DNA from: a phage | Direction: 5' to 3' (one strand) | Length of the DNA stretch: 47,623 nucleotides | Sequence record: PZ445468.1 | Shown: positions 7,534 through 46,540 of the stretch, one piece after another | Layout of the letters: each line of letters starts with the position of its first letter | How positions within the stretch are numbered: position 1 is the stretch's first letter | Program-made: the position numbers and the translations under genes | The notes under the pieces: model-generated | What the model was told of the DNA's origin: nothing | The model's input: only the letters and a program-made list of their open reading frames with translations | Database searches by the model: none

Positions 7534-7561
7534 AATCTACGTCAACATCATTGTGATAGAA
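7534..7561 (+). promoter_or_regulatory. extended -10 promoter TGTGATAGAAT preceded by AATCTACGTCAAC
   Basis: TGnTAnAAT element 28 nt upstream of endolysin ATG; inverted motif copy at 7506-7516. Confidence 0.45.
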
Positions 7562-7588
7562 TTAATCATTATTTGAACAGGAGGCAGA

Positions 7589-8029
7589 ATGAAACTATCG
7601 CAACGAGGTAAAAATTTCATCAAGTCATTCGAGGGGCTTGAACTACGCGTTTATCCAGACCCAGCAACTGGCGGCGCACCATATACAGCGGGTTACGGTC
7701 ACACTGGCGGTGACATAAAGCCCGGCATGACGGTAACACAAGCAATGGCTGACGCATGGTTTGATAAGGATGTGGAGAAGTTCGAATCCGGCGTATCCGC
7801 GCTACTAACTGCGCCAACAACCCAGCCACAATTTGATGCAATGGTGTCTCTGGCGTACAACATCGGACTAGGTAACTTTGGTAAATCCACACTCCTGAAG
7901 AAGCACAATGCTAAATGCTACCAGTGCGCCGCTGGTCAGTTTCCTTTGTGGAATCGTGCTAATGGCAAGGTTATGAATGGATTAACGCGGAGGCGTAACG
8001 CGGAGCGCGCTATGTATATGGGGCAATGA
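7589..8029 (+). CDS. endolysin (GH24 T4-lysozyme-like)
   Basis: FEGLELRVYPD...GYGHTG motif typical of phage lysozymes. Confidence 0.85.
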   Translation: MKLSQRGKNFIKSFEGLELRVYPDPATGGAPYTAGYGHTGGDIKPGMTVTQAMADAWFDKDVEKFESGVSALLTAPTTQPQFDAMVSLAYNIGLGNFGKSTLLKKHNAKCYQCAAGQFPLWNRANGKVMNGLTRRRNAERAMYMGQ

Positions 8030-8265
8030 AAAAGCTAAGCAACTGGCTGCTCGGCGTGTGGATTTCGTTCTGCTCGCTGTTGCAGTTATGGCCTGATGCA
8101 ATGATGCATGTATGGGTAATGATGCCGGATGACCTGAAAGCGGCGCTACCGCCAATCGTGGTTAAAGGGGTGAGCTACTCAATCATGCTGATTGGCATCC
8201 TCGGCAAAATGCACGGCATGAGGAAAGAAAACCGGAGGCTGCGCGATGATGGCAACTCTCATTAA
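8026..8265 (+). CDS. putative holin / lysis membrane protein
   Basis: two hydrophobic segments and charged C-terminus; sits between endolysin and spanins. Confidence 0.4.
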   Translation: MKKLSNWLLGVWISFCSLLQLWPDAMMHVWVMMPDDLKAALPPIVVKGVSYSIMLIGILGKMHGMRKENRRLRDDGNSH

Positions 8266-8743
8266 ATACTGGCGACCGCTGGCAATTATTATAATTGTTG
8301 CCGCTGGAGCGCTGTGGGTGGCAAATAAGGTATCCAATTATGGTGAACAGCAATATGCCGATGGATATGCAAAAGCCATTGCCGAACAGAAGGCCGCAGA
8401 AGAACAAGAGGAGCAACGACGCAATGCAGAACTGCAAAAGATTCATGCCGACGCACAGCAAAGGATTGACGCTGCGCGTAATGATGCTGTTAATGCTGCT
8501 ACTAAGTCTGGCAGGTTGCAGCAACAGCTCGCAAATATCCGCAAGCAGCTCGTCGGATATTCCACCGCTGAGTCCATTGGCAATCCAGCCGCAGAAACCG
8601 GAGTTTTGCTTGCCCAATTGCTCTCAGAATCTGTCGAAAGAAATCGACAGCTGGCAGATTACGCTGACAGGGCCAGAGACGCAGGATTAGCGTGTGAGGC
8701 GCAATATAATTCATTGAGAGCGAGAAATGCTAAGCAGAGATAA
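8246..8743 (+). CDS. i-spanin (Rz-like)
   Basis: N-terminal TM segment, Q/A/E-rich coiled-coil periplasmic domain. Confidence 0.6.
   Translation: MMATLIKYWRPLAIIIIVAAGALWVANKVSNYGEQQYADGYAKAIAEQKAAEEQEEQRRNAELQKIHADAQQRIDAARNDAVNAATKSGRLQQQLANIRKQLVGYSTAESIGNPAAETGVLLAQLLSESVERNRQLADYADRARDAGLACEAQYNSLRARNAKQR
8445..8690 (+). CDS. o-spanin (Rz1-like lipoprotein), embedded in +1 frame
   Basis: signal peptide with lipobox LSLAGC, Pro/Ser-rich mature part, fully inside i-spanin gene. Confidence 0.6.
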   Translation: MPTHSKGLTLRVMMLLMLLLSLAGCSNSSQISASSSSDIPPLSPLAIQPQKPEFCLPNCSQNLSKEIDSWQITLTGPETQD

Positions 8744-8874
8744 GCGAAAAGAATATGACAAGATGGCTTCTGATGTGGTAAGTGGTCGCGCTGGTTATCA
8801 GCCTGCGGTGAAATGCAGGCTAAGCAAATCGCCAAAGAAATGCTATGGAAAACCACCTGAATCACTGCGCAATA

Positions 8875-8898
8875 AAAAACCCCTCAATTGAGGGGTTT
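8875..8898. terminator. rho-independent terminator
   Basis: AAAAACCCCTCAATTGAGGGGTTTTT. Confidence 0.7.
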
Positions 8899-8906
8899 TT
8901 CTTATG

Positions 8907-8930
8907 AGTCAGCGATTCGCAGTCGCTGAC
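8907..8930. repeat. perfect 9-bp-stem inverted repeat
   Basis: AGTCAGCGA-ttcgcag-TCGCTGACT, no flanking U-tract. Confidence 0.6.
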
Positions 8931-9026
8931 TGCTACCAGAAAACATGTACCGAAGCTCACGTTGTCGTTACTTATAGCAAAGTAATAGTAGCAATAACCT
9001 TTCCCTGCGTCAACTCCATGCGCAAT

Positions 9027-9055
9027 AAAAAAACCCCGTAATGGGGCTTTGTTTT
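9027..9055 (-). terminator. rho-independent terminator for minus-strand operon
   Basis: CCCCGTAATGGGG hairpin with A7 on plus side (U-run on minus transcript). Confidence 0.65.
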
Positions 9056-9260
9056 AGAACTGAGTAATGCGAGCGTCTAAAATATTCCCATAGGTTCGCA
9101 TTGCGTTAAGTTGAGTGAAGAGTAGATGCTTTTCAATTTCAGGAAGAAGCATATATTCAGGATTATTTTTGATAAAGGCATCAAGCATTTCCGCCCTTCC
9201 CCATAAGTCGCGAGCCTCATCAATAACTCTTTTTTGGTAAGGTTTCATTTCTTTAGTCAT
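9054..9260 (-). CDS. hypothetical protein (68 aa)
   Basis: ORF. Confidence 0.45.
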   Translation of the reverse strand: MTKEMKPYQKRVIDEARDLWGRAEMLDAFIKNNPEYMLLPEIEKHLLFTQLNAMRTYGNILDARITQF

Positions 9261-9412
9261 TTTAATTTTCCGTATAGCGGTTTAATTTCATACCCAAACA
9301 TCTGCGCATTCTCATGCTCAACGCTACCAGCAAACACCAGGTAACGCTTGCCTCGATTATCCGTAACGATGTAGGCAGATGGCTCACTCTGCTGGCAATG
9401 TTGTTGGCTCAT
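9257..9412 (-). CDS. hypothetical protein
   Basis: ORF, ATG start chosen inside track ORF. Confidence 0.35.
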   Translation of the reverse strand: MSQQHCQQSEPSAYIVTDNRGKRYLVFAGSVEHENAQMFGYEIKPLYGKLK

Positions 9413-9692
9413 CAACAGATTCCTCAACCGCAGCTTCAACGATGCGCACCAGTGAACACTCAAGGTTCGGTGCATTGTAATTACCAGCCAGAAACAGAAC
9501 GCTACCCGTACTAATCAGCACCTGCTTTGCGCCTGCCTGTGACAGATTCTGCACGATGAATTGCGCCGTTTCCGTGCCGATTTTCAGCACTGCACTACCG
9601 TCGCTGTTCAGTGATACCAGTTGTGCGGATGTGTCAGCAATATTGGTAAAGTTCGCATTTCGTTGCGCGATTGTGATGTCGCAGAATGACAT
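9384..9692 (-). CDS. hypothetical protein (102 aa)
   Basis: ORF with ATG, coupled to upstream gene. Confidence 0.4.
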   Translation of the reverse strand: MSFCDITIAQRNANFTNIADTSAQLVSLNSDGSAVLKIGTETAQFIVQNLSQAGAKQVLISTGSVLFLAGNYNAPNLECSLVRIVEAAVEESVDEPTTLPAE

Positions 9693-10183
9693 TATTTAAT
9701 CTCTCCATTCAGTTCATTAACAATTAACGTCGCATAGCCAGCAATATCTTTCCAGCTATCGTCATAAGTCGGGTCGCCATTCAGGATGCGCCCAATCTTG
9801 TGCTGAATCATGTCGAGCGCCTCGCGTTGGCTTGGCGTCAGGTTGCGCCAGCCATCTACCTCGCGCATTACATCTTTCAGCTCCTGCATGATTTCAGCGC
9901 CGTCTTTGAATTTGCCGTATCGACTACCGCGTTCGGTGATGAGTTGCTCGGTTGCGTCAGCCTCTGGCGCGCCAATGCAATCGTTGAGGTCTTGCTCGTC
10001 GGTAATTGGCTCACGGTATGCAATAACAACATCCCCGCAACCCTCAATCACTTCAATGCGACCAGCATAATCTATGCTTAGATAGAAAATCTCACCAGTA
10101 CTTCCTGACTTAACTACAAGATAAGCCGTGTCATGGCCAGCAAAATCATCATCACATCCTTTCAGATATTTCCACTTTTTCAT
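9692..10183 (-). CDS. hypothetical protein (163 aa)
   Basis: ORF; acidic alpha-helical C-terminal domain, function not recognised. Confidence 0.5.
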   Translation of the reverse strand: MKKWKYLKGCDDDFAGHDTAYLVVKSGSTGEIFYLSIDYAGRIEVIEGCGDVVIAYREPITDEQDLNDCIGAPEADATEQLITERGSRYGKFKDGAEIMQELKDVMREVDGWRNLTPSQREALDMIQHKIGRILNGDPTYDDSWKDIAGYATLIVNELNGEIK

Positions 10184-10374
10184 TTCATCGTCACCAGATT
10201 ATTTTCATCAACATTAAAATTCTCACGAATCACCTGGTACATCTCATCTTTAGGCATATCAGCCAGTGCCACATAGCAGCGGGCAAAGTAGCGAACATCA
10301 CGGAGTGTCAGCGGCTGGCGCTTCTCCACAATGCTGGTGATAATGTCCATCGGCTCGCGTCGTGGTCTTGGCAT
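10180..10374 (-). CDS. hypothetical protein
   Basis: ORF with AAGGAG RBS (start at internal ATG of track ORF). Confidence 0.45.
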   Translation of the reverse strand: MPRPRREPMDIITSIVEKRQPLTLRDVRYFARCYVALADMPKDEMYQVIRENFNVDENNLVTMK

Positions 10375-10402
10375 ATTTACTACTCCTTCTCGAAAATTAT
10401 TG

Positions 10403-10447
10403 TTGACCAATCTACATCATTTAGTCAATACTTATTGACGTAGATTG
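10403..10447. promoter_or_regulatory. divergent promoter region with convergent motif pair
   Basis: TTGACCAATCTACATCA ... TTGACGTAGATTG between divergent operons. Confidence 0.4.
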
Positions 10448-10474
10448 TACCACAACGGAAAAGGTGATGTGGAA

Positions 10475-10672
10475 ATGCGATACAAAGAAATAGCAGCGAG
10501 ATATCAGAAAGAGGTGCGCGAGGTTATGGAAATCCTTAACGTTCGCGAAGATACCATTAAGTATGTGGAAACTGCCATGTGTTCACTGGCTCTTGAAGCG
10601 GAGGTTGCAGGTCGTGAAAAGGCTGACGAACTTATATCTGCGGTGGTTTATAGTTCAACCAGTAACGGTTGA
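10475..10672 (+). CDS. hypothetical protein (66 aa)
   Basis: ATG with AAAAGGTGA RBS. Confidence 0.45.
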   Translation: MRYKEIAARYQKEVREVMEILNVREDTIKYVETAMCSLALEAEVAGREKADELISAVVYSSTSNG

Positions 10673-10732
10673 AGACGAAGGTTATCTGTGCGTTGAGCAT
10701 GTTGTTATTAAATTCTACGGGAGAAATTACAA

Positions 10733-10927
10733 ATGGCGCATGACGAGCTGTACGAAAACTCGCTAATCCAGCGACTGAATGAAGTTGAACGTACTCGCGA
10801 ATGGCTTGAGTGTGACCTGCGAGAAGTGCGTAACCGCCTGCAACGCAATCGCAGCCAGCAGAAGGACGTTATCGACTGGTCGGGCGATACGCCTAAATTT
10901 AACAACATTGGAGAATGGATAAAATGA
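10733..10927 (+). CDS. hypothetical protein (64 aa)
   Basis: ORF. Confidence 0.45.
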   Translation: MAHDELYENSLIQRLNEVERTREWLECDLREVRNRLQRNRSQQKDVIDWSGDTPKFNNIGEWIK

Positions 10928-11145
10928 GAAAGTTCAGCACGATACACGAATTGGTTTTAGCTGATATTCGTGAGTCAAACGCCAGAAATAAGAAGTCAAG
11001 AAATCAGCGGCAAGATATTACTTTTCGCACACTGCTTAAGCAATCGATGCGCAATAAAAAGGAATGGAGATACAGACGCGACCGAGTTCTGATAAGACTG
11101 TGCAAGTTAAACATGAATAAGATACTTAAGGATATGACAAAATGA
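10924..11145 (+). CDS. hypothetical basic protein
   Basis: ORF, K/R-rich. Confidence 0.4.
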   Translation: MRKFSTIHELVLADIRESNARNKKSRNQRQDITFRTLLKQSMRNKKEWRYRRDRVLIRLCKLNMNKILKDMTK

Positions 11146-11393
11146 GCGCACCACATATGCCGATGATGAATGAGGAAGGATTTTTGAACTGCCCATTCTG
11201 TGGCTGCAATGAAGTTAGCATTGCTGTCGATGAGGATGGGTGGGAGTACATAGAATGCGGAGATTGCTATTGCCGTACAGACGCATTTCGTAACAGAGAG
11301 CTAATGACTAAATCATGGAACACGAGAGAGGGACACATCTACACCGCAGACGACTTCAATCAGGCAGCGGAGGAGCGCGATTATGGATTATAA
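11142..11393 (+). CDS. zinc-finger protein
   Basis: CPFCGC ... CGDCYC cysteine pairs. Confidence 0.45.
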   Translation: MSAPHMPMMNEEGFLNCPFCGCNEVSIAVDEDGWEYIECGDCYCRTDAFRNRELMTKSWNTREGHIYTADDFNQAAEERDYGL

Positions 11394-11871
11394 ATCACAA
11401 ATCATGCGCGTGATTATGATGCATCCCGGCGCAACGCGTGCATACATTGAGAAGCATTGCGGAGGAAAGCACTCTAGCACTACAACGCACCGTCTGCATG
11501 AGATGCTTGCGCTTGGCTTTATTCGCCGCGAGAAGTCAGTGATTCGTGGTGGCAAGTGGCAGTATAAGTATTTCATCTCTGATGATGCGGCAGGTATTGA
11601 TGATGCAATTAAGTGCCATCTGATTGATAACGCTGGCGCAGAAGTGAAAGAAATCAGCATCGCAACTGGCATTGATTACCGAATCGTGAAAAGCCGCGTC
11701 CGCATTATGTTTCATAACGGTGATGTGACGCGAAGCTATGACCACCACAAGAAACTGTGGCGTTACTCATGGAAGGAGCAGGAAGTAAATGTGAGCAACC
11801 TGTTTAATTCACTTCTTCGCAACGCAAGAGGTCGTCATGGGGAAAGCGAAACGCAAGAAGCAAGAGTATGA
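11383..11871 (+). CDS. hypothetical protein, possible winged-helix DNA-binding
   Basis: two helix-rich repeats; weak. Confidence 0.4.
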   Translation: MDYKSQIMRVIMMHPGATRAYIEKHCGGKHSSTTTHRLHEMLALGFIRREKSVIRGGKWQYKYFISDDAAGIDDAIKCHLIDNAGAEVKEISIATGIDYRIVKSRVRIMFHNGDVTRSYDHHKKLWRYSWKEQEVNVSNLFNSLLRNARGRHGESETQEARV

Positions 11872-12013
11872 GCCACTGCCGCCATGCGAAATGTCAGGAA
11901 TGCCACAGCAAGAGGACGTGATTCTCACCGAGGCAGAGTGGCGCAAGGTGGCAAGGGTGCAAATCATGTTCCGCAAACTTGCTGAGGACGTACTAAATGA
12001 GATGGGCTATTAA
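11837..12013 (+). CDS. hypothetical protein (58 aa)
   Basis: short ORF read by eye, overlaps neighbours. Confidence 0.25.
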   Translation: MGKAKRKKQEYEPLPPCEMSGMPQQEDVILTEAEWRKVARVQIMFRKLAEDVLNEMGY

Positions 12014-12347
12014 GCACAAATCCGGCAGAACTCTGTTTGTAACATCAGATGAGTTCATTGCCAATAACCGTAAAGAGATGGGCTGGATAGTGGAGGAAGT
12101 GAAGATGACGAGTAAAGAGCAGTTTAACGAATGGTTTTATGAATATACCGGGTGCAACCCAAAGGACAGTAGATATGTGAATATGGTCGAGATGTACTGG
12201 ATGGCATGGCAGGCATCTCGCGCAGCAATTGAGATTGAATTGCCAGAGCCGTGCTCCCCAGGTGATTTCTGTGTTGATATACCAGCACAAGCACATCATG
12301 AAGTTATTGAAGCAATCGAAAACGCAGGCTTAAAGGTGAAAAAATGA
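11997..12347 (+). CDS. hypothetical protein (116 aa)
   Basis: ORF. Confidence 0.45.
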   Translation: MRWAIKHKSGRTLFVTSDEFIANNRKEMGWIVEEVKMTSKEQFNEWFYEYTGCNPKDSRYVNMVEMYWMAWQASRAAIEIELPEPCSPGDFCVDIPAQAHHEVIEAIENAGLKVKK

Positions 12348-12673
12348 TTATCCAGTTAAACGACATTATGAAAGCAGACATCATTCAGCTTGAAGATTAT
12401 GACATGCAATTGGCGTTTGAAATCGAAACTGTTGAGCGTCAACTGCAATATGCAGATAAGAAGAATGACCGCGTCTGGCATGAGAAAGCACTTAAGGCAC
12501 GCGACCACATGAAGCGCACGCGAGCACTCATCAAAACGCGACTCGATAAGCTGTATTTTGGCGAAGAAAGGATGTTGCATGGCGCAATTCTTGCCGAGGT
12601 GCGCAAAACAATGTCAGTTGGTCGCTTCATGGAACTGGTACATAAGGCTAAACGTAATGCGGGGTTGGTTTGA
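12344..12673 (+). CDS. hypothetical protein (109 aa)
   Basis: ORF with 4-nt overlap. Confidence 0.45.
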   Translation: MIIQLNDIMKADIIQLEDYDMQLAFEIETVERQLQYADKKNDRVWHEKALKARDHMKRTRALIKTRLDKLYFGEERMLHGAILAEVRKTMSVGRFMELVHKAKRNAGLV

Positions 12674-12921
12674 TGGAATTTAATATAAATGAGTCTGTAA
12701 AAATTAAGCTCAACGATAATGGCATCAATATTCTGCGCAAGCGACACAATGAACTTCGTTTGAGAGTTCCTGGTATTGGTGATTTTGTCGAGCCAGCAAA
12801 AGATGATGATGGATATTCGTCATTTCCGCTGTGGGCGCTATTCGATACATTTGGAGAATATGTCCACCTTGGGTGCATTCCACCATTCGACACTACAATT
12901 ATCATCCCGGAGCGAAAATGA
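12670..12921 (+). CDS. hypothetical protein (83 aa)
   Basis: ORF. Confidence 0.45.
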   Translation: MMEFNINESVKIKLNDNGINILRKRHNELRLRVPGIGDFVEPAKDDDGYSSFPLWALFDTFGEYVHLGCIPPFDTTIIIPERK

Positions 12922-13064
12922 TTCCATTACTTTGGATATTATCCGCCTACGCATTCGCAAGGGTATTTGAGGCTGACACGCTGTACCAGATGATTTGCTA
13001 TGGCGCTCTGTTCTGCCTGTCAGGTGCTGCGCTTGCATTCATGGATGATGTGATTTCAGACTAA
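12918..13064 (+). CDS. small membrane protein
   Basis: hydrophobic 48-aa ORF, internal ATG of track ORF. Confidence 0.3.
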   Translation: MIPLLWILSAYAFARVFEADTLYQMICYGALFCLSGAALAFMDDVISD

Positions 13065-13216
13065 CACCGTATATCTTTTGTTCATCATGGGCTGCTATCA
13101 TTTAATCAGGAGGTAGCCCATGAACATAATCCCTATCACTTACTTTCTCACGCTCTACGCGCTCACCGACTCGCCATTGTTTGCACTGGCTACCGCCTCA
13201 TGGTGCTACATCTCCC

Positions 13217-13227
13217 TGTGTTATAAT
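13217..13227 (+). promoter_or_regulatory. extended -10 promoter TGTGTTATAAT
   Basis: TGnTATAAT 31 nt upstream of 13259 ATG, no -35 consensus. Confidence 0.45.
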
Positions 13228-13258
13228 TCGACCACAAACTAACCGTGGAGAGTTAACC

Positions 13259-15135
<1,877 letters not shown>

Positions 15136-15146
15136 GGAGCCGAATA

Positions 15147-16827: not shown

Positions 16828-16853
16828 AAAACCCGCATTATGCGGGTTTTTTA
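16828..16853. terminator. bidirectional rho-independent terminator
   Basis: AAACCCGCATTATGCGGGTTTTTT between convergent genes. Confidence 0.7.
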
Positions 16854-17569: not shown

Positions 17570-17832
17570 CAATCACCATCATCGTGAAGGCTGTTGAGTT
17601 TGCCTCCGCAGAAAGGACAAAAATTAAGCAGAACTGGATTTTTATTTCCAGCTTGATAGGTGACTTTTTCACCCAATGATTCTCCTGTGGAAATTAGCAC
17701 CGATTGCACAGAAACTAATCCTTTTGTGTTTTTATTTGCTGCACGCTGAAGGTATTCAGCGAGATGTGCGCAAATATTAGTTGCGTATCTTTTCCCTTCG
17801 CTTGCGCATGGAATTAATTTTTCGGTCATCAC
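17569..17832 (-). CDS. zinc-ribbon protein
   Basis: C-terminal CPFCGG motif. Confidence 0.45.
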   Translation of the reverse strand: MMTEKLIPCASEGKRYATNICAHLAEYLQRAANKNTKGLVSVQSVLISTGESLGEKVTYQAGNKNPVLLNFCPFCGGKLNSLHDDGD

Positions 17833-18638
17833 ATCTTCTCCAGAATAGCCATAACTTCGTGAATATCAGCAACAGGGATCTGGATAAATTCCTCATCCTC
17901 TGCCACCACATGACCAGCAGGAAGAATCACATGGTCGGCTGGCTTCAATAACTCAATCAAACGGTCTACTGGCTTAATCTTTTTCGACTTCAGCACCTTC
18001 GCAGTGACCTTATCCTTACCTTGCGCCTTCGCTTCTTCCACTGCCTCGTCGATAAGTTTAACCGCATCATCACCATGCTCACGCGTTACTGCTACGGCAT
18101 TTGCATAGCTGATTTGCCCGGCGCTGATGCGCGCCTTTACTTCCGCCGTAACGTCACCAAGCGATAGGTGCATTTGCACGTCAGATACTGAGCGACCTAC
18201 CTTTTTTGCTATTTCTTCATTAGTCCAGCCAAAGCCTTTCAGTCGCGTGTAAGCCTTTGCGCGTTCAAACGGGTCGAGCTTCTTGCCCTGACTTGATGAC
18301 ACCATAAAGGCGATTTTATCCGCCTCATCCCCTGTGAAATCCTTACACTCAATACGAACGATTGGTGCTCCGCGCTCAATGGCTCGCAGTGCGCCGAGAT
18401 AGCGATGCTGACCATCAAGAATGCGGATTCCCTTCTCGTCAGGAATAACTGTTAATGCTGGTAATGGTTGGCCTGACTCCCAGCACTGCGCGAAATATTC
18501 CACATGCTGCTCATCTGCTTCGCGGATGTTGTATCCCGGCTCCAGATAGATTTGCTCCACTGGCACGAGATAGGTTTTGTTAACAGCGATGCCGTTTCGC
18601 GTCTCTTTGTCTGAATAGATTTTGCTGAGTGTTTTCAT
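17829..18638 (-). CDS. ParB-like nuclease domain protein (DGQHR motif)
   Basis: ILDGQHRYLGALRA motif typical of ParB/DndB-like N-terminal domain. Confidence 0.55.
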   Translation of the reverse strand: MKTLSKIYSDKETRNGIAVNKTYLVPVEQIYLEPGYNIREADEQHVEYFAQCWESGQPLPALTVIPDEKGIRILDGQHRYLGALRAIERGAPIVRIECKDFTGDEADKIAFMVSSSQGKKLDPFERAKAYTRLKGFGWTNEEIAKKVGRSVSDVQMHLSLGDVTAEVKARISAGQISYANAVAVTREHGDDAVKLIDEAVEEAKAQGKDKVTAKVLKSKKIKPVDRLIELLKPADHVILPAGHVVAEDEEFIQIPVADIHEVMAILEKM

Positions 18639-18649: not shown

Positions 18650-19126
18650 TTAATCAAAAATCCAATTTTCTGTTTCCGAGTTGTGACCGAGGTTGTAGCT
18701 AATAACAGGTTTTGATGTGTCTATTTTTTTTAATTCATCAACAACAGTTGTGATTACGGCTATATCCTGTTTTAGTCGCATCAAGTGATATTTCTTTCTA
18801 CGCAACAAGCTTTCAAGCGCTAGTTGCTGAGATTGAAACGCATAAGATCGTTCTGCTGACTTAGCAATTTTCTTGATTGCATATCTATTTTTCTTATCTT
18901 TCCACTCCGCAAGCCAGCGGGGAATATCACGTTCATGATTGTATACTTTGAACCAGTGGGCTGGGGCTATCCATACATAGTACGCTGTCTGGTGAAAAGC
19001 AATGAACTGCTGAGAAATTATTTTGATACCGTCACTTTCGACTGTTTCAAAATACTTCCAGTAAACAGGCATGCCGTTGAACTCTGTTTTAGCATCTGGA
19101 AATGGAACTGACCATGATTCACTCAT
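18650..19126 (-). CDS. hypothetical protein (158 aa)
   Basis: first gene of antisense operon. Confidence 0.5.
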   Translation of the reverse strand: MSESWSVPFPDAKTEFNGMPVYWKYFETVESDGIKIISQQFIAFHQTAYYVWIAPAHWFKVYNHERDIPRWLAEWKDKKNRYAIKKIAKSAERSYAFQSQQLALESLLRRKKYHLMRLKQDIAVITTVVDELKKIDTSKPVISYNLGHNSETENWIFD

Positions 19127-19168
19127 TTTTCATCACCTCTAACATTTATTGTTGTTTCTACGCCACCA

Positions 19169-19214
19169 ACTATAAACGCCGCACTAATCTACGTCAACAG
19201 GAATATGCTAAAAT
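19169..19214. promoter_or_regulatory. divergent promoters
   Basis: leftward TTGACG-17-TATAGT; rightward extended -10 TGCTAAAAT; contains AATCTACGTCAAC. Confidence 0.5.
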
Positions 19215-19244
19215 CATGCTAATCAAACAACAGGGGATTTAAAC

Positions 19245-21734: not shown

Positions 21735-21761
21735 AAAGCCGCACGAAGCGGCTTTTAATTT
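21735..21761 (+). terminator. rho-independent terminator
   Basis: AAAGCCGCACGAAGCGGCTTTTAATTT. Confidence 0.65.
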
Positions 21762-22034: not shown

Positions 22035-22791
22035 GTGTTGTGGCTCTGGTGCCTCCAGATTGCTGGTCGGTAAATCCAGCAGGCAATCACAAAACCGAAG
22101 TAGTGTTTCTTTACCTTGCCGCGTGCGCATAGCCGCATTACCACAACGGAAAGAGCACTGGTGGGACGCCTTCCTACATCATTGCGGTTCGGATTCCCCA
22201 CATAGCGCGTCACGGTCGTCGGCGAATTTTCCGTGGTCAATGCTCTTTCCTGTTGTGTGTTGTGGAGTGACGCACCATCTCACTATTAAATGTTAACCCA
22301 TTCCCAGCCCCACAACATGCGCTACGGTTAAGATTATTGCGTATATTGTATGGTCTTGCTGGTCACAACTGAAAGGGCACTTAACAGAAGATAGGTCTGA
22401 TTGCCTCGGATGATTTCTCAGTAGCCTAAATGCCCTTACATGTTGTGTGCCACGTTTCGTGTGGCTTACGGCAACGACATTACCGGATTATTCGATGCAC
22501 CTATGCGGGATTTACTAAGGCAACATGCCCGTTGTTACCCACTAAAGAGAGCACTATCTTCAAACAGACTTTGCGCGCAAGAACGACGATCAATCACAAT
22601 TCTCTCATTGGTAGGTGCCCATTATTAATCACACCGGGCCAGTGCGCCGAATTTGTTTACAAGGAATCGGAAGACCTTGCTGACTTACAGGCTATTACGC
22701 CGCCATCAGAACAACATCATCGTTTGCATTTATCTTTGTGGTCAGTTTCTAAAAAGTCCGCAAAGTCGCTCACGAAAACTATCTGAAATAC

Positions 22792-22835
22792 AATCTACAC
22801 CACAAAATAATCGCTGTCAACACCTGTGATATAAT
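22792..22835 (+). promoter_or_regulatory. extended -10 promoter TGTGATATAAT with upstream AATCTACACC
   Basis: TGnTATAAT 37 nt upstream of major tail ATG. Confidence 0.5.
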
Positions 22836-23594: not shown

Positions 23595-23619
23595 AAAAGC
23601 CCCGAAAGGGGCTTGTTTT
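23595..23619. terminator. bidirectional rho-independent terminator
   Basis: AAAAAGCCCCGAAAGGGGCTTGTTTT. Confidence 0.7.
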
Positions 23620-24848: not shown

Positions 24849-24897
24849 AATCTACATCACCGCCTGGCAGGTGTCAACACCACTGAGATGATATAAT
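24849..24897. promoter_or_regulatory. divergent promoters
   Basis: leftward TTGACA-17-TAGATT; rightward extended -10 TGATATAAT before tail chaperone. Confidence 0.55.
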
Positions 24898-28120: not shown

Positions 28121-31921
<3,801 letters not shown>

Positions 31922-31960
31922 TACAATATACATCAAATTCACAAAGGAGCATTTATTATA

Positions 31961-34121: not shown

Positions 34122-34147
34122 AAGGCCCCGAAAGGGGCCTTTTCTCT
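34122..34147. terminator. bidirectional rho-independent terminator
   Basis: AAGGCCCCGAAAGGGGCCTTTT between convergent genes. Confidence 0.7.
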
Positions 34148-36675: not shown

Positions 36676-36700
36676 TCATCATCACGTAAATGAATCTACA

Positions 36701-37135
36701 TCAATCCACATCAAAAGGCAAGCCAAAATAGAAAAGTGTGGCTTTTTTTAGTTCATCAAGTCCATAAGCGATGGCGGCATAATGACCAAGCCTACACATC
36801 TCTGTTAGCACATCCGATTGCTCCTTGCTCACTCTGCTTTTACTTTTATCGCGGCGCTTTGACTCAATCATTCCGCAACTGTGATTTACACCCGGAGTCA
36901 TTATTACGTTGTCGCCTATTCCAGTCTTAACTCCCATCTTCTGGCGCTTCAGCACAAACTGCACTCTGCTTGATGTGCCAGTTTCGTTTGGTACATGAAA
37001 CCACAGAACATCAGGGAATCGGTGTTGCATCCATGTGCCGTAACCCATCTGGTCAGTCTCCTCTTTAGGACACTCACCACGATAACCGCTATCAAATACC
37101 CATATACCGCTATCAAGCTGCTTCACTTTGCTCAC
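36701..37135 (-). CDS. VRR-NUC domain nuclease
   Basis: 144-aa ORF with D ... E-x-K pattern (GIGDNVI ... GMIESKR). Confidence 0.45.
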   Translation of the reverse strand: MSKVKQLDSGIWVFDSGYRGECPKEETDQMGYGTWMQHRFPDVLWFHVPNETGTSSRVQFVLKRQKMGVKTGIGDNVIMTPGVNHSCGMIESKRRDKSKSRVSKEQSDVLTEMCRLGHYAAIAYGLDELKKATLFYFGLPFDVD

Positions 37136-39622: not shown

Positions 39623-39665
39623 AAACCTCGCACTTCTTTACGGTGATCGCCATTTCATAACCTCT

Positions 39666-39729
39666 ATTGTAACGATTAATTGTTTCATTTCAAGTAACGA
39701 TTGATTGTTTCATGCGAGTAAATTACAAT
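39666..39729. promoter_or_regulatory. divergent promoters with tandem 18-bp repeats
   Basis: leftward TTGAAA-16-TACAAT; rightward TTGATT-17-TACAAT; AACGATT(A/G)ATTGTTTCAT twice. Confidence 0.45.
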
Positions 39730-39760
39730 GATTCTACATCATCGTCAACAGGAAGATTTT

Positions 39761-40714: not shown

Positions 40715-40717
40715 AGG

Positions 40718-40742
40718 AAACCATCCAGTTGGAGGGTTTTTG
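40718..40742 (+). terminator. rho-independent terminator
   Basis: AAACCATCCAGTTGGAGGGTTTTTG. Confidence 0.5.
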
Positions 40743-40813
40743 TTATTCATTGAACTCTGGCGCTTCAGTCCAGAAGTGCTCAGGTAAAATTTTAAGTTCG
40801 TGTGTTTTGCTCA

Positions 40814-42406
40814 TCACAACCCCCTCATAAATCTCATGCGCTTAACGGCAGCGGAAAGATAATTTCTAACCGTTGAGTTCATCCGCAGGCCATCCCATGA
40901 ACCATCACTACACATCTTAATTGCTCTTGGATTATCCCTGTCCAGCATTAGTGGTGAATGTTTGTTCTCCTCAATGGCAAGAAGAACCTCATAAACAAAC
41001 TTATCAGGTGTTAGTGTGATGTTATTAGAGTCAGCAGAATTGATTATCTTTTCAACTCTGTCACGGCACAGCTTGTTCTTTATAACAGACAAATAAGGCG
41101 TTTTAATGAATGCCTGTGATTCACAAATTCGCTTTATTTTTTCAACAATATTCGACCACTCAGTATTCTCAAGTCCATCAAATGCCTGTTCACCCTCAAG
41201 GAATCTTTTCAGCCCTGACAGGTGTTCAAGAACCGTGATATAACCCCACTCGATATGCTCCATCGTCACTGATGGTGTCATTCCCTGCCGACTTGACAGA
41301 TCGGTATACGCCGCCAGAGTTGCAAGATCGACAATCATTAGACCCATACGAGGGATAACATCACCAACAACACCATCGCAATCACCAAGCTCACTTTCCA
41401 GTTTCATAGACAGAGATCGGTGCAGTTTTTTAGCATTATCATCAGCCCATACAACGTGAGTTTTCGCGGTAAGAACCCTACCTTTCCACTCATTGATTAT
41501 TTTTCTTGAAAGCGTACCACTCACTTCCACATCCTTCATCGCTGGCATTTCCTCACCAGCAAGATGTCCAAGCTGGAACAGCACGCGCCCCATACCGCCA
41601 TCTTTCTGCCATGAACGCGCAGCATCTATTCCCTGCTCTGGTGTGACAGTAATCAGCGGAACAAATTTTGCGTTTTCAATTCCACCTTCTTTTGTTGCAA
41701 TTTCGTACTCATTCATTGCCGACTTTAGTGCTCTCCCAACGCTGTGGTCCATCATCGCAAGACGCTTATAATCTATGACTCCTTTCCCGTCATCTCCACC
41801 AGTAAGTGGCACTATCCATCCCTCTGCGCTTGCTGCCGCCATGATGCGTTTTGGGTTTTGTTCCCACGTAAGGTTTTCAAGCAACTCCTTTATTATTGGT
41901 CTATTAGGAACCCACACGCCGCCATCAGTTAGGGCTCTATACCACGCCATAGTGCCGCCAAGATATGCATTGCGCGGGTTGTTCCAGTCTTCAAGATGTT
42001 GCTTGTCATCGTTCACAACGTAGAGCAAAGACCCACCTCCGGCAATCAGGTCTAACTGCATCTGTTTCGTCGATGTTGATTTGGATGCGCAAACTCTGGA
42101 CCCTATTCCCAGCGCATTGGCATACGCCCTGACGAAACTCACCGGTGCACCCTTACCTGCACCAGAGCGAGCCACGAGAAATATTCCAGTATTGCAGATA
42201 CTACCTGTTGGACCAATCAAGTATCGTCCAGCCATCGCCTGAGCAAGACCCAACGCGCCAGTTAAACGATATCTTCCCCCTCCCTCACGGCGCTCAAACC
42301 CCCTTGCGATCTCATCCATAAACTCACCAAGTGCCCCGGGAGCATCCCGCTTTATGCCCATAGCCAGAGACTCAAAATCAATCGAACTCATCAATACACC
42401 CTCCAT
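40814..42406 (-). CDS. hypothetical protein (530 aa), possible replication protein
   Basis: large ORF next to iteron region; Gly-rich SGAGKG loop not a canonical Walker A. Confidence 0.4.
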   Translation of the reverse strand: MEGVLMSSIDFESLAMGIKRDAPGALGEFMDEIARGFERREGGGRYRLTGALGLAQAMAGRYLIGPTGSICNTGIFLVARSGAGKGAPVSFVRAYANALGIGSRVCASKSTSTKQMQLDLIAGGGSLLYVVNDDKQHLEDWNNPRNAYLGGTMAWYRALTDGGVWVPNRPIIKELLENLTWEQNPKRIMAAASAEGWIVPLTGGDDGKGVIDYKRLAMMDHSVGRALKSAMNEYEIATKEGGIENAKFVPLITVTPEQGIDAARSWQKDGGMGRVLFQLGHLAGEEMPAMKDVEVSGTLSRKIINEWKGRVLTAKTHVVWADDNAKKLHRSLSMKLESELGDCDGVVGDVIPRMGLMIVDLATLAAYTDLSSRQGMTPSVTMEHIEWGYITVLEHLSGLKRFLEGEQAFDGLENTEWSNIVEKIKRICESQAFIKTPYLSVIKNKLCRDRVEKIINSADSNNITLTPDKFVYEVLLAIEENKHSPLMLDRDNPRAIKMCSDGSWDGLRMNSTVRNYLSAAVKRMRFMRGL

Positions 42407-42720
42407 ACGCGCAAGAATTTACCCTGGATAACACCCTGTTTCACCGTTAACACAGCACCCACCCTGTCAGCCTCAATTTTTAGCGCCTTCTGAAGTGACG
42501 CCATTGTCATCTGAAAACCTCGCTCTATGTCGTATGCGTAGCACCCATCTCTGCCCCCAATCAAAATTGAAGTTGAATACCCGTTCTCAAAGTAAAACTG
42601 ACACCCATCAGGAGCGGTAAGATTATTTATCACGTCGTGAGCAAGCGATGTCGTAACAGGGAATATCGGCGCGCAACTCATACTCACCTCACCCAACTCG
42701 CTTAATGTGCAAAACTTCAT
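42391..42720 (-). CDS. hypothetical protein (109 aa)
   Basis: ORF. Confidence 0.4.
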   Translation of the reverse strand: MKFCTLSELGEVSMSCAPIFPVTTSLAHDVINNLTAPDGCQFYFENGYSTSILIGGRDGCYAYDIERGFQMTMASLQKALKIEADRVGAVLTVKQGVIQGKFLRVWRVY

Positions 42721-42937
42721 CGAAATATGAGCACGTTCTGAATTTCATCCCAAAATCCTCACCAACCCTTCCGAGACACGCGCGAAATCTTTCAACAGAC
42801 ATCACTTTATCTGCAATATCCTCATAAGAAATCGAATTAACCTGACCAACATCCATATGTTTTGCAACGCGATACACGAATTCCATCTTTGAACCATCAC
42901 GGTACATTTTGTTTCTCATAGACACCTCCATCCGCAT
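42689..42937 (-). CDS. hypothetical protein (82 aa)
   Basis: ORF. Confidence 0.4.
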   Translation of the reverse strand: MRMEVSMRNKMYRDGSKMEFVYRVAKHMDVGQVNSISYEDIADKVMSVERFRACLGRVGEDFGMKFRTCSYFDEVLHIKRVG

Positions 42938-43084
42938 TCCAACAGGAACTATAGATAAAAAATAAAATTAGCGCAACACAAAACAGGTCTAACCAGCAAT
43001 AATAGCTACCACACTTAACAACTGGTCAGACCACCATCTCGTATCTGATATATGTGGATGGTGCACGTCGTTCAATTTGTGCTC

Positions 43085-43443
43085 GATTTTTACCTAATTT
43101 ACCGTATATTTATTAGTCAGTTTTTTGCATAACCAATTGATTTATATGATTTTACCTGTTTTACCGGAAATCTAATGAGTATTTTCATCATTGAGAGTAG
43201 TAGTATATTAATTGGTCTAATTTTTAAAGAACTCTAATAAAATCAATATATTAATATAAGAAAGTAACTTACTTACTTATATAGGATTTACCGGGTAAAA
43301 CCGGTAACTCCTCCGCAGTCCGCGTCATTACTGGATTGATTTTTACCACCTGTAGGTAAATACAGTAGTTTTTAAGTCAGGATTGTTTTGTAAGATGTTG
43401 ATTACCGGTACTTTATTTGAAAAACCGGGATTTACCGGGTTTT
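43085..43443. repeat. iteron array (TTTACC / ACCGG core), putative origin
   Basis: at least 10 direct and inverted copies of GATTT(T)ACC(G/T), including palindromes TTACCGG-N6-CCGGTAA and TACCGGTA. Confidence 0.55.
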
Positions 43444-43516
43444 TGTGGTGTGATTAATAATCGCGCAATTAGCCATGTTTCACCAGAACTCACTGATGCG
43501 ACACCTGAAAATCGCA

Positions 43517-43545
43517 TTGACGTAGAATTACAACTGATGTAGATT
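43517..43545 (+). promoter_or_regulatory. sigma70-like early promoter TTGACG-17-TAGATT
   Basis: hexamers 30 nt upstream of first early ORF; second motif copy overlaps. Confidence 0.5.
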
Positions 43546-43575
43546 GAACTCATCAAAACAAACGAGGGTGAAGAG

Positions 43576-43722
43576 ATGAAAATCAAATACCGTGAAGAAT
43601 TTGAAGATGCACAGGTTATGGCACGTATCGCAGTTGAGCGCACAGACAACATCATTCCTGCCGAAGCATTCTGGAACGCAGCAATGCAGGCTTTAATCTC
43701 TGCGTATGGGTTAAGTAAATGA
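43576..43722 (+). CDS. hypothetical protein (48 aa)
   Basis: short ORF read by eye with GAGGGTGAAGAG RBS. Confidence 0.35.
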   Translation: MKIKYREEFEDAQVMARIAVERTDNIIPAEAFWNAAMQALISAYGLSK

Positions 43723-43814
43723 CAGGCGCAAAACTCGAGCTTATCGCCAGTCTGGTTATCTTGGCATTCATCATTATCGCAGTGGCAGTTTCAAAATCAG
43801 GGTATGAGAGGTGA
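43719..43814 (+). CDS. small membrane protein (31 aa)
   Basis: short hydrophobic ORF, ATGA overlap. Confidence 0.25.
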   Translation: MTGAKLELIASLVILAFIIIAVAVSKSGYER

Positions 43815-43899
43815 AATGAGCAATTGGCATAACGAACATATCATGCAGTGGTATCGCCGTAGCATCAAGGCAATCATTAACTCTTATGAGGTTTAACAA

Positions 43900-44082
43900 A
43901 TGGCAAAGACTATCTATCGCCGCGAGAAACTGGAACCAGAACTCGGTCACGTTGGCGCGCAAAACTTTATGAGCAAGCAGGCACGTAATGCGATGGAATC
44001 TATCCGCGTGAATCGCGTTGTGCGCGTGTTTAATGGTGAAGGTAAGCGTAGGGTAATGGATGAGCTGATTATCGTATTCTGA
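43900..44082 (+). CDS. hypothetical protein (60 aa)
   Basis: ORF. Confidence 0.4.
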   Translation: MAKTIYRREKLEPELGHVGAQNFMSKQARNAMESIRVNRVVRVFNGEGKRRVMDELIIVF

Positions 44083-44118
44083 ACTCGATTCAGCGATCTT
44101 ATTTCTAATGGTGATGAT

Positions 44119-44352
44119 ATGGCAAAAGTAAAAACATACGAGTTCTGGTTTGTTCAGAACAAAATGTATGCAAGCAGGACAATCAGGCGAGTCAGCTGGT
44201 GGAATAAGTGGTTAATCATGTCTGGCTGCATTGTGCTGGCAAAGTGCAAATTCAAAGCGATTGACATCACAGATGAGGATGCGCTCAAAATCGCAAAGAT
44301 TGAGTTTGAAGAAGATGGCTATTACGAAGAAATTATGGGGGTTAGGGTATGA
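44119..44352 (+). CDS. hypothetical protein (77 aa)
   Basis: ORF. Confidence 0.4.
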   Translation: MAKVKTYEFWFVQNKMYASRTIRRVSWWNKWLIMSGCIVLAKCKFKAIDITDEDALKIAKIEFEEDGYYEEIMGVRV

Positions 44353-44846
44353 GTGAAGTTAAGCGAATTGATATCGACCACAAAGGACTTCCATTCACTG
44401 ATAATAATGGGGTTTACGTTTTCTACGAAGACTATGCAGCACTAGAAGCTAAATGCGCTGCGCTGGTGGTGGAGAATGCGGTGCTGAATAAATTTATCGT
44501 ACAGAGTTGCTACGTGTTTGACGGCGAGCAGGGTGAACTATCTGATGCGTATATCTGCGCAATAGATGGAAGGATGCCGCAAACCACAGCCACCGACGCT
44601 TTCTTGGCTGAAGTGAAGACTGAAGCACGCAAGGAGGGAGCTTACTTTGTGGCGAACAGAATGCTGGCTGCCTGGGAAGCTGGTTTTATTGATGATACTG
44701 CAAAGAACGCCGCGGATATTGCCAGGATGATTCTTACCTCTACTGAGTTTATGGCTAATGCGCCGGAAGGCGATTTTGACCGCTCATTCTCTGATGGCGT
44801 TCTCGAAGATATCGCCGCCCAGCTTCGCAAAGGAGGCAACCAGTGA
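44349..44846 (+). CDS. hypothetical protein (165 aa)
   Basis: ORF. Confidence 0.45.
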   Translation: MSEVKRIDIDHKGLPFTDNNGVYVFYEDYAALEAKCAALVVENAVLNKFIVQSCYVFDGEQGELSDAYICAIDGRMPQTTATDAFLAEVKTEARKEGAYFVANRMLAAWEAGFIDDTAKNAADIARMILTSTEFMANAPEGDFDRSFSDGVLEDIAAQLRKGGNQ

Positions 44847-45451
44847 GCGAGATTAATTACCAGGCTCTGCGTGAAGCGGCGGAGAAGGCGACGAAAGGCC
44901 GGTGGGCTGTTGAGTTCGACGATGAGATTTACTCCACTGACGGCGTGAACCATGAGCAAATAGCCATGGTATTCAGTGAAAACGAAGCGCGTGATGCTGC
45001 ATTTATCGCCGCAGCCAACCCCGCCACCGTGCTGGCGCTGCTGGATGAGCTGGAGAAGACGCAGGCGCAATCGTCAAAGTGGTGCGAAGCCTTCCATAAA
45101 GCCGTATCGGTTGGTGCTCGCTATGAAGAGCGCATAGCAGAACTGGAGGGGGACGCATTCAATCCCGCAATTATTGATGTGGTAGCAGAACGCCAGCGGC
45201 AACAGTCGGTTGAAGGATGGACTCCTGAACATGACAACGCATATCAAAATAGCGAATTAGCAGATGCAGCGGCTTGTTACGCAATTCATGCGCACAACCA
45301 AGGTTTCTCCACTCCAGCACATTGGCCGTGGTCTCCTGACTGGTGGAAGCAATCAGGAGCACGCCGCGACTTAGTAAAAGCTGGCGCTCTTATTCTGGCA
45401 GAAATTGAACGTATTGACCGCGCCGCTGGCATTGGCGTGAAGGGGGAGTGA
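44843..45451 (+). CDS. Ead/Ea22-like protein
   Basis: N-terminal ALREAAEKAT ... NPATVLALLDELE pattern. Confidence 0.5.
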   Translation: MSEINYQALREAAEKATKGRWAVEFDDEIYSTDGVNHEQIAMVFSENEARDAAFIAAANPATVLALLDELEKTQAQSSKWCEAFHKAVSVGARYEERIAELEGDAFNPAIIDVVAERQRQQSVEGWTPEHDNAYQNSELADAAACYAIHAHNQGFSTPAHWPWSPDWWKQSGARRDLVKAGALILAEIERIDRAAGIGVKGE

Positions 45452-45452
45452 T

Positions 45453-46115
45453 ATGAGCACTATCACCAAAGAATTCACCAAAGAGCAGTTACAGCAAATT
45501 ATCGAAACTGACCACGTTCAATGTGGTGAGGCTTCTGCACTGGCGCGTATCGCGCTGGCATCACTCGAAGCGGAGCCTGTAGCGTGGGCGCACAGATTAA
45601 TCAACAAGCGTAACGGAGTCGTTCACCCTTGGGTTTACGGTAGCGCAGAGGCGTGTCCAAGCGAGGTGGATATCTTCAATATTGAGGTAATGCCGCTCTA
45701 CACCGCCCAGCCAGCGCCGGTATCTGTGCCCGTAGCTCTGAATCGACTGCGCTCCATAGTGGCTGACCCAAGAGCTTTACCTCGGCGCAAGGAGTGGATT
45801 AGTGGGCAGCAATACAGCTATGTGCTTCTTGAAAACGTAGAGGCGATGGTAGATGACGCCTGCCGCACCGCCATGCTTCATGGCTCAGAACCGGAAACTG
45901 ATAACACAAACCAGCAATTCGAAAGCCTGGATAAAAGTGAATATCTACCCGTTCATATTAATTATCAGTGCGCTCTATGTGGCGCACGCTTTAGTGGGGA
46001 TGTATTGATGACCAGACACCAACGACGCCGCTATACCACTGGCGCTAAAATCTTCCTTGCTGTTTATATGTTAGCACTGGTGGCAGCCATTGCAGGAGTT
46101 GTGCATTATGTTTAA
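45453..46115 (+). CDS. hypothetical protein (220 aa)
   Basis: ORF, hydrophobic C-terminal tail. Confidence 0.45.
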   Translation: MSTITKEFTKEQLQQIIETDHVQCGEASALARIALASLEAEPVAWAHRLINKRNGVVHPWVYGSAEACPSEVDIFNIEVMPLYTAQPAPVSVPVALNRLRSIVADPRALPRRKEWISGQQYSYVLLENVEAMVDDACRTAMLHGSEPETDNTNQQFESLDKSEYLPVHINYQCALCGARFSGDVLMTRHQRRRYTTGAKIFLAVYMLALVAAIAGVVHYV

Positions 46116-46287
46116 CGATATCAACGAAGCCATTCTTCATGCCATAAAGAAGCACGCAATGTATGGCAAGCGATACCATTTCGCTCTTATCCAGAGATTA
46201 AACAAAATTGAGGTGAGCACTCATCCAGAAGATGACAGACGACAGGTGATGTGGTCAACGAGGTCTATGAAGCATGCAAACAACTAA
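46108..46287 (+). CDS. hypothetical protein
   Basis: ORF, ATG internal to track ORF. Confidence 0.35.
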   Translation: MFNDINEAILHAIKKHAMYGKRYHFALIQRLNKIEVSTHPEDDRRQVMWSTRSMKHANN

Positions 46288-46447
46288 ACAGAAAGTCTGG
46301 CAACTCGCCAAACAACACGAGCTGGATGATTTTATCGCAAAGGTGGCAAAGACATTCCCTGACGCACTTGAAATCGTTCATGTGCAGACGCGAACAGAAA
46401 ATGCATGGTGCTATGCTGGCAAGCGTGATAATGATGGTATACAATAA
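46274..46447 (+). CDS. hypothetical protein (57 aa)
   Basis: short ORF read by eye with GAGG RBS. Confidence 0.3.
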   Translation: MQTTKQKVWQLAKQHELDDFIAKVAKTFPDALEIVHVQTRTENAWCYAGKRDNDGIQ

Positions 46448-46492
46448 GCACATAACCACCATTGCTTTCACTCATATCATCACCCAACCTTT

Positions 46493-46518
46493 AACCCGCC
46501 TTGTGCGGGTTCTTTTTT
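46493..46518 (+). terminator. rho-independent terminator
   Basis: AACCCGCCTTGTGCGGGTTCTTTTTT. Confidence 0.7.
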
Positions 46519-46540
46519 ATCTACGTCTATGTGTTAAAAT
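46519..46540 (+). promoter_or_regulatory. extended -10 promoter TGTGTTAAAAT preceded by ATCTACGTC
   Basis: TGnTAAAAT 36 nt upstream of 46576 ATG. Confidence 0.45.

Follow-up and report, generated by a model that had tools for sequence, protein, structure and literature searches.

Promoters of the extended -10 class, of which galP1 of E. coli is an example, are recognized through a TG that is read by sigma region 3.0 and a hexamer that is read by region 2, and the contact of sigma region 4 with a -35 element is dispensable. Several phages have late promoters without a -35 element; those of Mu (C), P2/P4 (Ogr/Delta) and T4 (TATAAATA, gp55) rely either on an activator site at a set position or on a special -10 recognized by a sigma-like protein of the phage, and the A3 promoter of phi29 requires p4 at a fixed upstream site, p4 acting on the divergent A2b/A2c promoters as well as on A3. 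Thermus phage P23-45 transcribes its early genes with an RNA polymerase of its own. Extended -10 promoters (TGn or TRTG) are a class of sigma-70 promoters (Mitchell et al. 2003, as cited in PMC3950348), to which the middle and late promoters of P23-45 belong; these are spared by gp39, and AsiA of T4 likewise spares extended -10 promoters (PMC3950348). Here, we analyze a window of 47,623 bases (the whole stretch of DNA under study), which comprises the entire circular genome of Escherichia phage TanjaMuster_Bas81, hereafter Bas81 (PQ850630.1, 100% identity; subtracting 1048 from a position in that record gives the position in the window), and describe eight extended -10 elements that head its packaging, head, lysis, neck and tail operons.

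These elements resemble known extended -10 promoters in the TG one base before TAnnnT, the lack of a usable -35 and a fitting distance to the gene; the difference is that Bas81 is predicted to use this class at all eight structural and lysis operon heads, and the 12 predicted early promoters do not use it. As with gp39 of P23-45 and AsiA of T4, a late class of extended -10 promoters without a -35 stands next to a -35-dependent class, but gp39 shuts off host -35-dependent promoters, whereas the early genes of Bas81 appear to use -35/-10 sigma-70 promoters. The likeness to phi29 consists in back-to-back early and late promoters within ~100 base pairs (bp), late promoters without a -35 and a repeated motif over the early promoter cores; in contrast to phi29, however, the distance of the motif varies in Bas81, two late promoters lack it, the -10 elements are strong on paper, and a p4 homologue was not found. 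With the late promoters of Mu, P2/P4 and T4, those of Bas81 share the missing -35, but the invariant TG points to sigma-70 itself. We rejected a T4-type late promoter, because none of the eight elements reads TATAAATA. An activator bound at a fixed site does not fit either: the only shared upstream motif (ATCTACRYC) lies at variable positions from about -24 to -50 and is absent at two promoters, and the promoter core, judged from sequence, is near consensus.

The pattern TGNTANAAT is found 14 times in the window versus 8.4 times expected, a weak enrichment considering that 14 occurrences were reached in 5 of 100 shuffles. Eight genes carry the pattern at most 70 nucleotides (nt) upstream, all on the + strand; the pattern ends 26-37 nt ahead of the ATG, and every one of these genes opens a packaging, head, lysis, neck or tail operon (Table 1). 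Random relocation of the 14 hits gave a mean of 0.87 such genes and a maximum of 5 in 20,000 trials (P<5e-5); because eight was never reached, the placement of the elements is not explained by chance. The initial annotation had listed six of them as lying upstream of structural and lysis operon heads, which is borne out by this placement; all six strings are on the + strand, and five are exactly where they had been reported, but TGTGATAGAAT, the TGTG-containing string of the lysis promoter, begins at 7552, not 7551, and the elements of the portal (3352) and tail fiber (31919) genes had been left out.

A TG at -15/-14, one base before the -10 hexamer, is present at all eight sites, four of which have the longer TGTG form, and the hexamers (TATAAT at four sites, TAAAAT at two, TAGAAT and TACAAT at one each) all keep T-12, A-11 and T-7. 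The claim that a TTGACA-like -35 is missing also stood: at 16-18 nt spacing, each of the eight sites reaches at best 1-2 of 6 matching positions, as low as at ~53% of random positions, the other 47% scoring at least 3 of 6, which suggests that -35-like sequence is avoided at the late promoters. Because the hexamers are near consensus and the TG is invariant, these promoters probably need no activator. A shared upstream element at constant distance, which would be expected of an activator site, was not detected, and an RNA-family search returned no family matching the eight sites. Generic promoter scans were uninformative on their own, with hit counts equal to those in shuffled sequence. In every feature that can be tested on the sequence, this is the TGn class of sigma-70 promoters.

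Bas81 belongs to a large, poorly studied clade of Escherichia, Salmonella, Shigella and Klebsiella siphoviruses without an assigned family (Cedarrivervirus, Macdonaldcampvirus, Skatevirus, Roufvirus and others). For the comparison, we used an IMG/VR sample of 34 loci at the major tail gene and 25 at the endolysin gene, together with the complete Klebsiella phages BUCT541, vB_Kpn_ZC2 and VLCpiS13f and Vibrio phage pYD38-A; Cronobacter phage CS01 (Drexlerviridae) and the endolysin-only phages L057-L064, which do not have the Bas81 genome layout, were left out, and the element is not present in the latter. All eight elements are kept in every clade member examined, including Roufvirus and the Klebsiella phages at ~65% DNA identity (for the Klebsiella phages, only in the parts that align), and the distance from element to start codon is unchanged across the clade. 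Often, the element is the sole invariant block of its region. Thus, the head-operon 11-mer TGTGTTATAAT is the same in all 18 distinct upstream sequences, with diverging flanks, and the tail fiber GTGATACAATA in all 22 relatives, with diverging flanking coding sequence; the major tail promoter does not vary either, and locus L037 keeps CTGTGATATAAT though its upstream DNA has been replaced. At other sites, the element varies within narrow limits, reading TGTG(T/G)TAA(A/G/T)AT at the packaging operon in all 13 relatives found, TG(A/G)TATAAT at the DUF6246 gene (23/23), and TGCTATAAT or TGATATAAT, followed directly by a hairpin and a T-run, in the portal alignment. The lysis promoter is TGATAAAAT in 14/14 clade relatives, and this sequence also stands at the position of the 19206 element in the Klebsiella phages.

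The substitutions seen in relatives, namely, TGATATAAT to TGGTATAAT, TGCTAAAAT to TGATAAAAT, TGATAGAAT to TGATAAAAT, and TGTTAAAAT to TGGTAAGAT or TGTTAATAT, are confined to positions -13, -10 and -9. T-15, G-14, T-12, A-11 and T-7 are constant, and the base between the TG and the hexamer can be A, C, G or T. Judged by established sigma-70 recognition, this pattern fits TGn extended -10 promoters.

On either strand, the operons for accessory, replication and tRNA genes are preceded by predicted promoters with both -35 and -10 hexamers. The canonical TG at -15/-14 is found at 8/8 late operon heads versus 0/12 predicted early promoters (Fisher p=8e-6), and because the rightward hyp6-11, hyp30-40 and hyp89-98 operons use the -35/-10 class, the split follows gene function rather than strand. 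That there are two promoter classes, as initially proposed, is upheld at the sequence level by this division and its conservation across the clade. The details of that proposal fared less evenly: four leftward TTGAC(A/G)-17 promoters are present, and three fit TA(G/T)A(G/T)T, but CATAGT at 7517-7545 does not; the second class does serve accessory genes, but not only leftward ones, as the operons at 1908, 10403 and 43517 run rightward; and from the description of the late class as activator- or extended -10-dependent, the extended -10 remains, whereas no fixed-distance upstream element speaks for an activator, and both classes are sigma-70-like. The promoter at 22792-22820 can be assigned to the tRNA genes because its orthologue in VLCpiS13f lies ~20 nt from tRNA-Arg. 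Across relatives, the two hexamers of the early promoters stay 17-18 nt apart even if the spacer has changed, as in the Klebsiella phages at 24849-24877. Directly before the -10 hexamer of the early promoters at 1841-1869, 7517-7545, 22792-22820, 24849-24877, 36693-36721 and 43517-43545 stands an ATG or GTG, which places the TG at -14/-13, one base nearer than in a canonical extended -10, consistently across these promoters.

The late operons are bounded by strong hairpin terminators, most of which are usable both ways, and the stem at 46493-46511, directly downstream of which lies the packaging promoter, shows compensatory changes in relatives. At the portal gene, promoter and terminator are nested, the predicted transcription start (~3367) falling within the 5' arm of the 3358-3381 hairpin. 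The full hairpin folds at -12.0 kcal/mol versus -0.1 kcal/mol for RNA beginning at 3367; with the start inside the 5' arm, RNA from the portal promoter would escape the hairpin, and read-through from the upstream accessory operon would stop there. Relatives have the same nested layout with another promoter variant and another stem sequence.

Pieces of TTGAYGTAGATT(G), hereafter the 12-mer, make up the top over-represented 8-mers of the window, of the three Klebsiella phages and of pYD38-A; its other-strand form, ATCTACRYC, occurs 14 times in the window versus 1.1 expected. It is absent from CS01 and nearly absent from L057-L064, with one copy in L063. The 12-mer overlaps core elements (-35, -10 or start) of 11 of the 12 predicted early promoters, serving as the -10 (TGRTGTAGATT) at 1841, 22792, 24849, 36693 and 43534, as the -35 with the first spacer bases (TTGACGTAGATT) at 7534, 19186 and 43517, and lying inverted, in the spacer or over the start, at 1915, 1938, 7508, 10410 and 10435; the 10403 promoter is flanked by an inverted pair (10409-10420 and 10435-10446). 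An orphan copy at 46518-46529 has no leftward gene to serve, and its TTTTTTATCTACGYC is invariant in 13 relatives. In the TTGACGTAGATTG-N10-TATAGT layout, TAGATTG falls in the spacer, where sigma-70 makes no base-specific contact, and is kept in two promoters of the window and in orthologous or similar promoters of the Klebsiella phages. The conserved spacer part and the invariant orphan copy suggest that the 12-mer does not consist of promoter hexamers alone but is bound by a protein, and it may be an operator for a phage protein. More speculatively, and in our estimate rather improbably, it would be a clade-wide operator through which one protein shuts all early operons and licenses the adjacent -35-less late promoters, including from 46518-46529; if true, a single motif would govern the switch from early to late genes across a family-level group of enterobacterial siphoviruses, with a regulon that has not been described. 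In an informal comparison, none of the DnaA, IHF, CRP, MetJ, NarL, sigma-E and sigma-S consensus sequences fits the 12-mer, and a sigma-S or sigma-70 reading on the + strand fails for want of T-7. The only leftward intergenic occurrence of the late pattern, TGGTACAAT at 10444-10452 (-), overlaps a copy of the 12-mer in the divergent region between hyp29 and hyp30.

Two proteins are candidate regulators: a ParB/Spo0J/KorB-type helix-turn-helix (HTH) protein at 17829-18638 and the PHROG1687 protein at 11383-11871. The latter bears a MarR-like label that comes from PHROGs only and is unconfirmed; it had no match in Pfam or PDB, its single-sequence AlphaFold2 model was unusable (predicted local distance difference test, pLDDT, 35), and the homologues found were all at least 85% identical. 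No gp39-, AsiA-, p4- or gp55-like protein was recognized among the scanned Bas81 proteins, nor was a phage RNA polymerase among the annotated genes and scanned proteins, with no dedicated search made for it. Given that no polymerase or sigma-like protein was recognized, and that the invariant TG fits sigma region 3.0, we infer that the host sigma-70 polymerase reads both classes.

The explanation that we favor, with moderate confidence, is that the eight elements are genuine sigma-70 extended -10 promoters and that the differing -35 dependence of the two classes is the handle of the early-to-late shift. The eight rightward operons for packaging, lysis and the head, neck and tail would each be headed by one TGn promoter, with intrinsic terminators insulating each late unit, and the accessory, replication and tRNA operons would be driven by -35-dependent promoters (TTGACN-17/18-TAGATT or TATAGT). 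Recognition of the -35 could be disabled by a phage product, or the 12-mer could be bound by a repressor; either would silence the early class and host promoters and thereby free RNA polymerase for the -35-independent late class, which would survive the loss of -35 recognition because sigma region 4 is not needed. Such a strategy is known, and Bas81 would be a further example; the 12-mer is the part that could be new. The resulting map, which predicts eight late units that do not depend on a -35, roughly a dozen early units that do, and the terminators that lie between them, is of interest because so clean a split makes the timing of late genes directly testable in a small phage without a recognized polymerase of its own.

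Several observations weigh against this explanation. We infer the early or late timing of the units from gene content alone, promoter activity is likewise a prediction, and transcript 5' ends or a time course were not found for the phage or its clade. Near-consensus TGnTATAAT promoters should fire at infection, so that a strict late class would need an early restraint, and none was identified. In scans with PHROG (~50 proteins) and Pfam (ten), neither an anti-sigma factor nor a sigma-like protein turned up, nor did any known late activator, most of the proteins being without known function. The scan found no terminator-like hairpin separating the head operon from the hyp30-40 accessory operon, so read-through may be a further route to some late genes. 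Finally, the 13219 and 31919 elements overlap coding sequence, and coding constraint could explain part of their conservation.

Alternatively, both classes could be plain constitutive sigma-70 promoters, the -35-less form being a packing solution and expression being set by strength, read-through and dosage, an account that we regard as unlikely. Space is indeed short: in divergent regions of ~100 bp, the leftward -35 takes the place of a rightward one, standing 6-11 nt from the rightward TG in four regions (0-8 nt in the Klebsiella phages), and after a terminator there is no room, the 3352 and 46532 promoters both abutting one. Strong TGnTATAAT promoters would also be expected to fire unaided, and the scans recognized no regulator. 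However, the promoters at 13219 and 31919 are neither divergent nor preceded by a terminator and yet have no -35, every one of the eight sites scores 2 of 6 or lower for a -35, as do only ~53% of random positions, and space alone does not account for the perfect sorting by function (TGn 8/8 versus 0/12), which extends to the rightward accessory operons. If the split were merely constitutive, it would still be useful annotation, although no surprise. More radically, the elements could be chance 9-mer matches in AT-rich intergenic DNA or RNA-level signals. This is consistent with the modest excess of TGNTANAAT over shuffles (14 versus 8.4) and with simple promoter scans that returned shuffled counts, but is rendered highly improbable by the placement statistics, the invariance at ~65% identity amid diverging flanks, the sigma-70-like substitutions and the lack of an RNA family match.

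A further possibility is a regulator that acts on both classes in the manner of p4 of phi29, with a protein bound to the 12-mer blocking the early promoters and recruiting RNA polymerase to the adjacent late ones. The 12-mer invites this idea as the top over-represented word that overlaps 11 of the 12 predicted early promoter cores, with TAGATTG conserved in a spacer that sigma-70 does not read and an invariant orphan copy between terminator and packaging promoter; it lies upstream of five late promoters, with a weaker variant at a sixth, and the ParB/KorB-type HTH protein, the PHROG1687 protein and small proteins without known function are candidates to bind it. The geometry is nevertheless unlike that of a fixed-position activator, the motif centering at ~-24, -27, -30, -30, -45 and -50 relative to the predicted late starts and being absent from the promoters of the portal and tail fiber genes. 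Belonging to a divergent early promoter is enough to explain four of the upstream copies, and the near-consensus late -10 elements, judged from sequence, should not need activation. Moreover, no protein is tied to the 12-mer, and a cluster of TTTACC repeats offers an alternative ParB-type or replication-origin site. We consider a dual regulator of this kind quite unlikely and retain the shift in -35 dependence as the preferred explanation. In the literature on Bas81, its clade, the named relatives and Drexlerviridae, we found no promoter or transcript mapping, and the literature gave no match for TGnTATAAT tied to late genes; Bas81 is part of the BASEL collection, and members of its clade are often put forward for biocontrol, but no study of gene regulation was found.

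Table 1. Predicted promoters, terminators and 12-mer copies in the Bas81 window; the last column gives the distinct upstream sequences of relatives that carry the element
Feature	Coordinates	Strand	Genes served or location	Remarks	Element in relatives
Extended -10, TG-T-TAAAAT	46532..46540	+	Bas81_0001 (probable small terminase), HNH, TerL	TGTG form	9/9
Extended -10, TGCTATAAT	3352..3360	+	portal, head morphogenesis operon		18/18 (loose regular expression, in some relatives catching neighboring TGATACCAT)
Extended -10, TGATAGAAT	7554..7562	+	endolysin, holin, spanin operon	TGTG form	14/14
Extended -10, TGTTATAAT	13219..13227	+	470-amino acid protein, head decoration, major capsid operon	TGTG form	18/18
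Extended -10, TGCTAAAAT	19206..19214	+	hyp52, lipoprotein, membrane, neck operon	one protein with Neck1 match	30/30
Extended -10, TGATATAAT	22827..22835	+	major tail protein gene	TGTG form	15/15
Extended -10, TGATATAAT	24889..24897	+	DUF6246, tape measure, minor tail operon		23/23
Extended -10, TGATACAAT	31919..31927	+	tail fiber gene	overlaps TGA stop of preceding tail gene	22/22
-35/-10, TTGAAG-17-TAGAAT	1841..1869	-	leftward hyp5-hyp4		
-35/-10, TTGACC-17-TAGTAT	1908..1936	+	accessory operon hyp6-hyp11	ATCTACAYC copies in spacer and predicted start	
-35/-10, TTGACG-17-CATAGT	7517..7545	-	leftward hyp19-hyp14 operon	-35 within 12-mer TTGACGTAGATT	
-35/-10, TTGACC-18-AATACT	10403..10432	+	accessory operon hyp30-hyp40	conserved in relatives	
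-35/-10, TTGACG-17-TATAGT	19169..19197	-	leftward hyp50, ParB-like, RusA operon	-35 within TTGACGTAGATT; conserved in Klebsiella phages	
-35/-10, TTGACA-17-TAGATT	22792..22820	-	towards tRNA genes		
-35/-10, TTGACA-17-TAGATT	24849..24877	-	leftward hyp69-hyp65 operon, including superinfection immunity gene		
-35/-10, TTGCCT-17-TAGATT	36693..36721	-	before exonuclease VIII (recombination genes)	-10 within TTGATGTAGATT	
-35/-10, TTGACG-17-TAGATT	43517..43545	+	accessory operon hyp89-hyp98	both hexamers within 12-mer copies	
Other early-type promoter	39666-39693				
Other early-type promoter	42948-42976				
Terminator hairpin overlapping portal promoter	3358..3381	+		starts in last bases of -10 hexamer	
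Two-way terminator	5726..5748		portal/head operon versus leftward hyp14 operon		
Two-way terminator	16828..16850		ends head operon and leftward RusA operon		
Terminator hairpin	21735..21755		between neck operon and tRNA genes		
Two-way terminator	23597..23614		after major tail gene		
Two-way terminator	34122..34141		after tail fiber gene and leftward SSB gene		
Intrinsic terminator	46493..46511	+	ends accessory operon	-10.6 kcal/mol, z = -3.9	
12-mer region	1841-1948				
12-mer region	7506-7545				
12-mer region	10409-10446				
12-mer region	19186-19197				
12-mer region	22792-22803				
12-mer region	24849-24860				
12-mer region	36693-36704				
12-mer region	39731-39742				
12-mer region	43517-43545				
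Orphan 12-mer, TAGACGTAGATA	46518..46529	-	between terminator and packaging promoter	ATCTACGTC on + strand	

Some of the annotated open reading frames (ORFs) coincide with promoter sequence. Bas81_0040, 0051 and 0088 (13120-13242, 19114-19242 and 43417-43542) are tiny ORFs that lie over conserved promoter cores, the 13219 and 19206 elements falling within the first two, and Bas81_0051 also overlaps the 5' end of a divergent gene; these ORFs may be annotation artefacts. Just downstream of the tRNA promoter, within Bas81_0063, ~60-80 nt at 22716-22783 (-) resemble DNA of unrelated phages, being 86-96% identical to unannotated DNA in Vi1-like, 72-kb podovirus-type and P7 phages; in P7, the matching piece is located between the Op(ban) operator and tRNA genes. 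It gave a sub-threshold tmRNA-like Rfam hit, and a significant fold was not found. This piece could be a leader that phage tRNA operons have in common, and Bas81_0062 and 0063, which have no PHROG match, may be spurious ORFs.

Next to the primase start, at 39640-39760, a direct repeat of 20 nt (GTAACGATTRATTGTTTCAT) occurs twice, with 25 nt between the copies, and carries divergent promoter-like hexamers; the annotated primase ATG overlaps the TACAAT hexamer, and in the 680-bp gap to the left, the record skips locus tag 0082. The TTTACC cluster occupies a gene-free region of 497 bp (42920-43416), in which TTTACC/GGTAAA repeats occur in both orientations and GATTTTTACC, GGATTTACCGGGT and TTTTACCTNNTTTACCG are each present twice; the region could be a replication origin or a ParB-like binding array. 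In the packaging operon, between Bas81_0001 and the HNH gene, an int-alpA RNA motif was detected at 47033-47096 (+), with an Rfam score of 42.6 bits versus a gathering threshold of 35.8.

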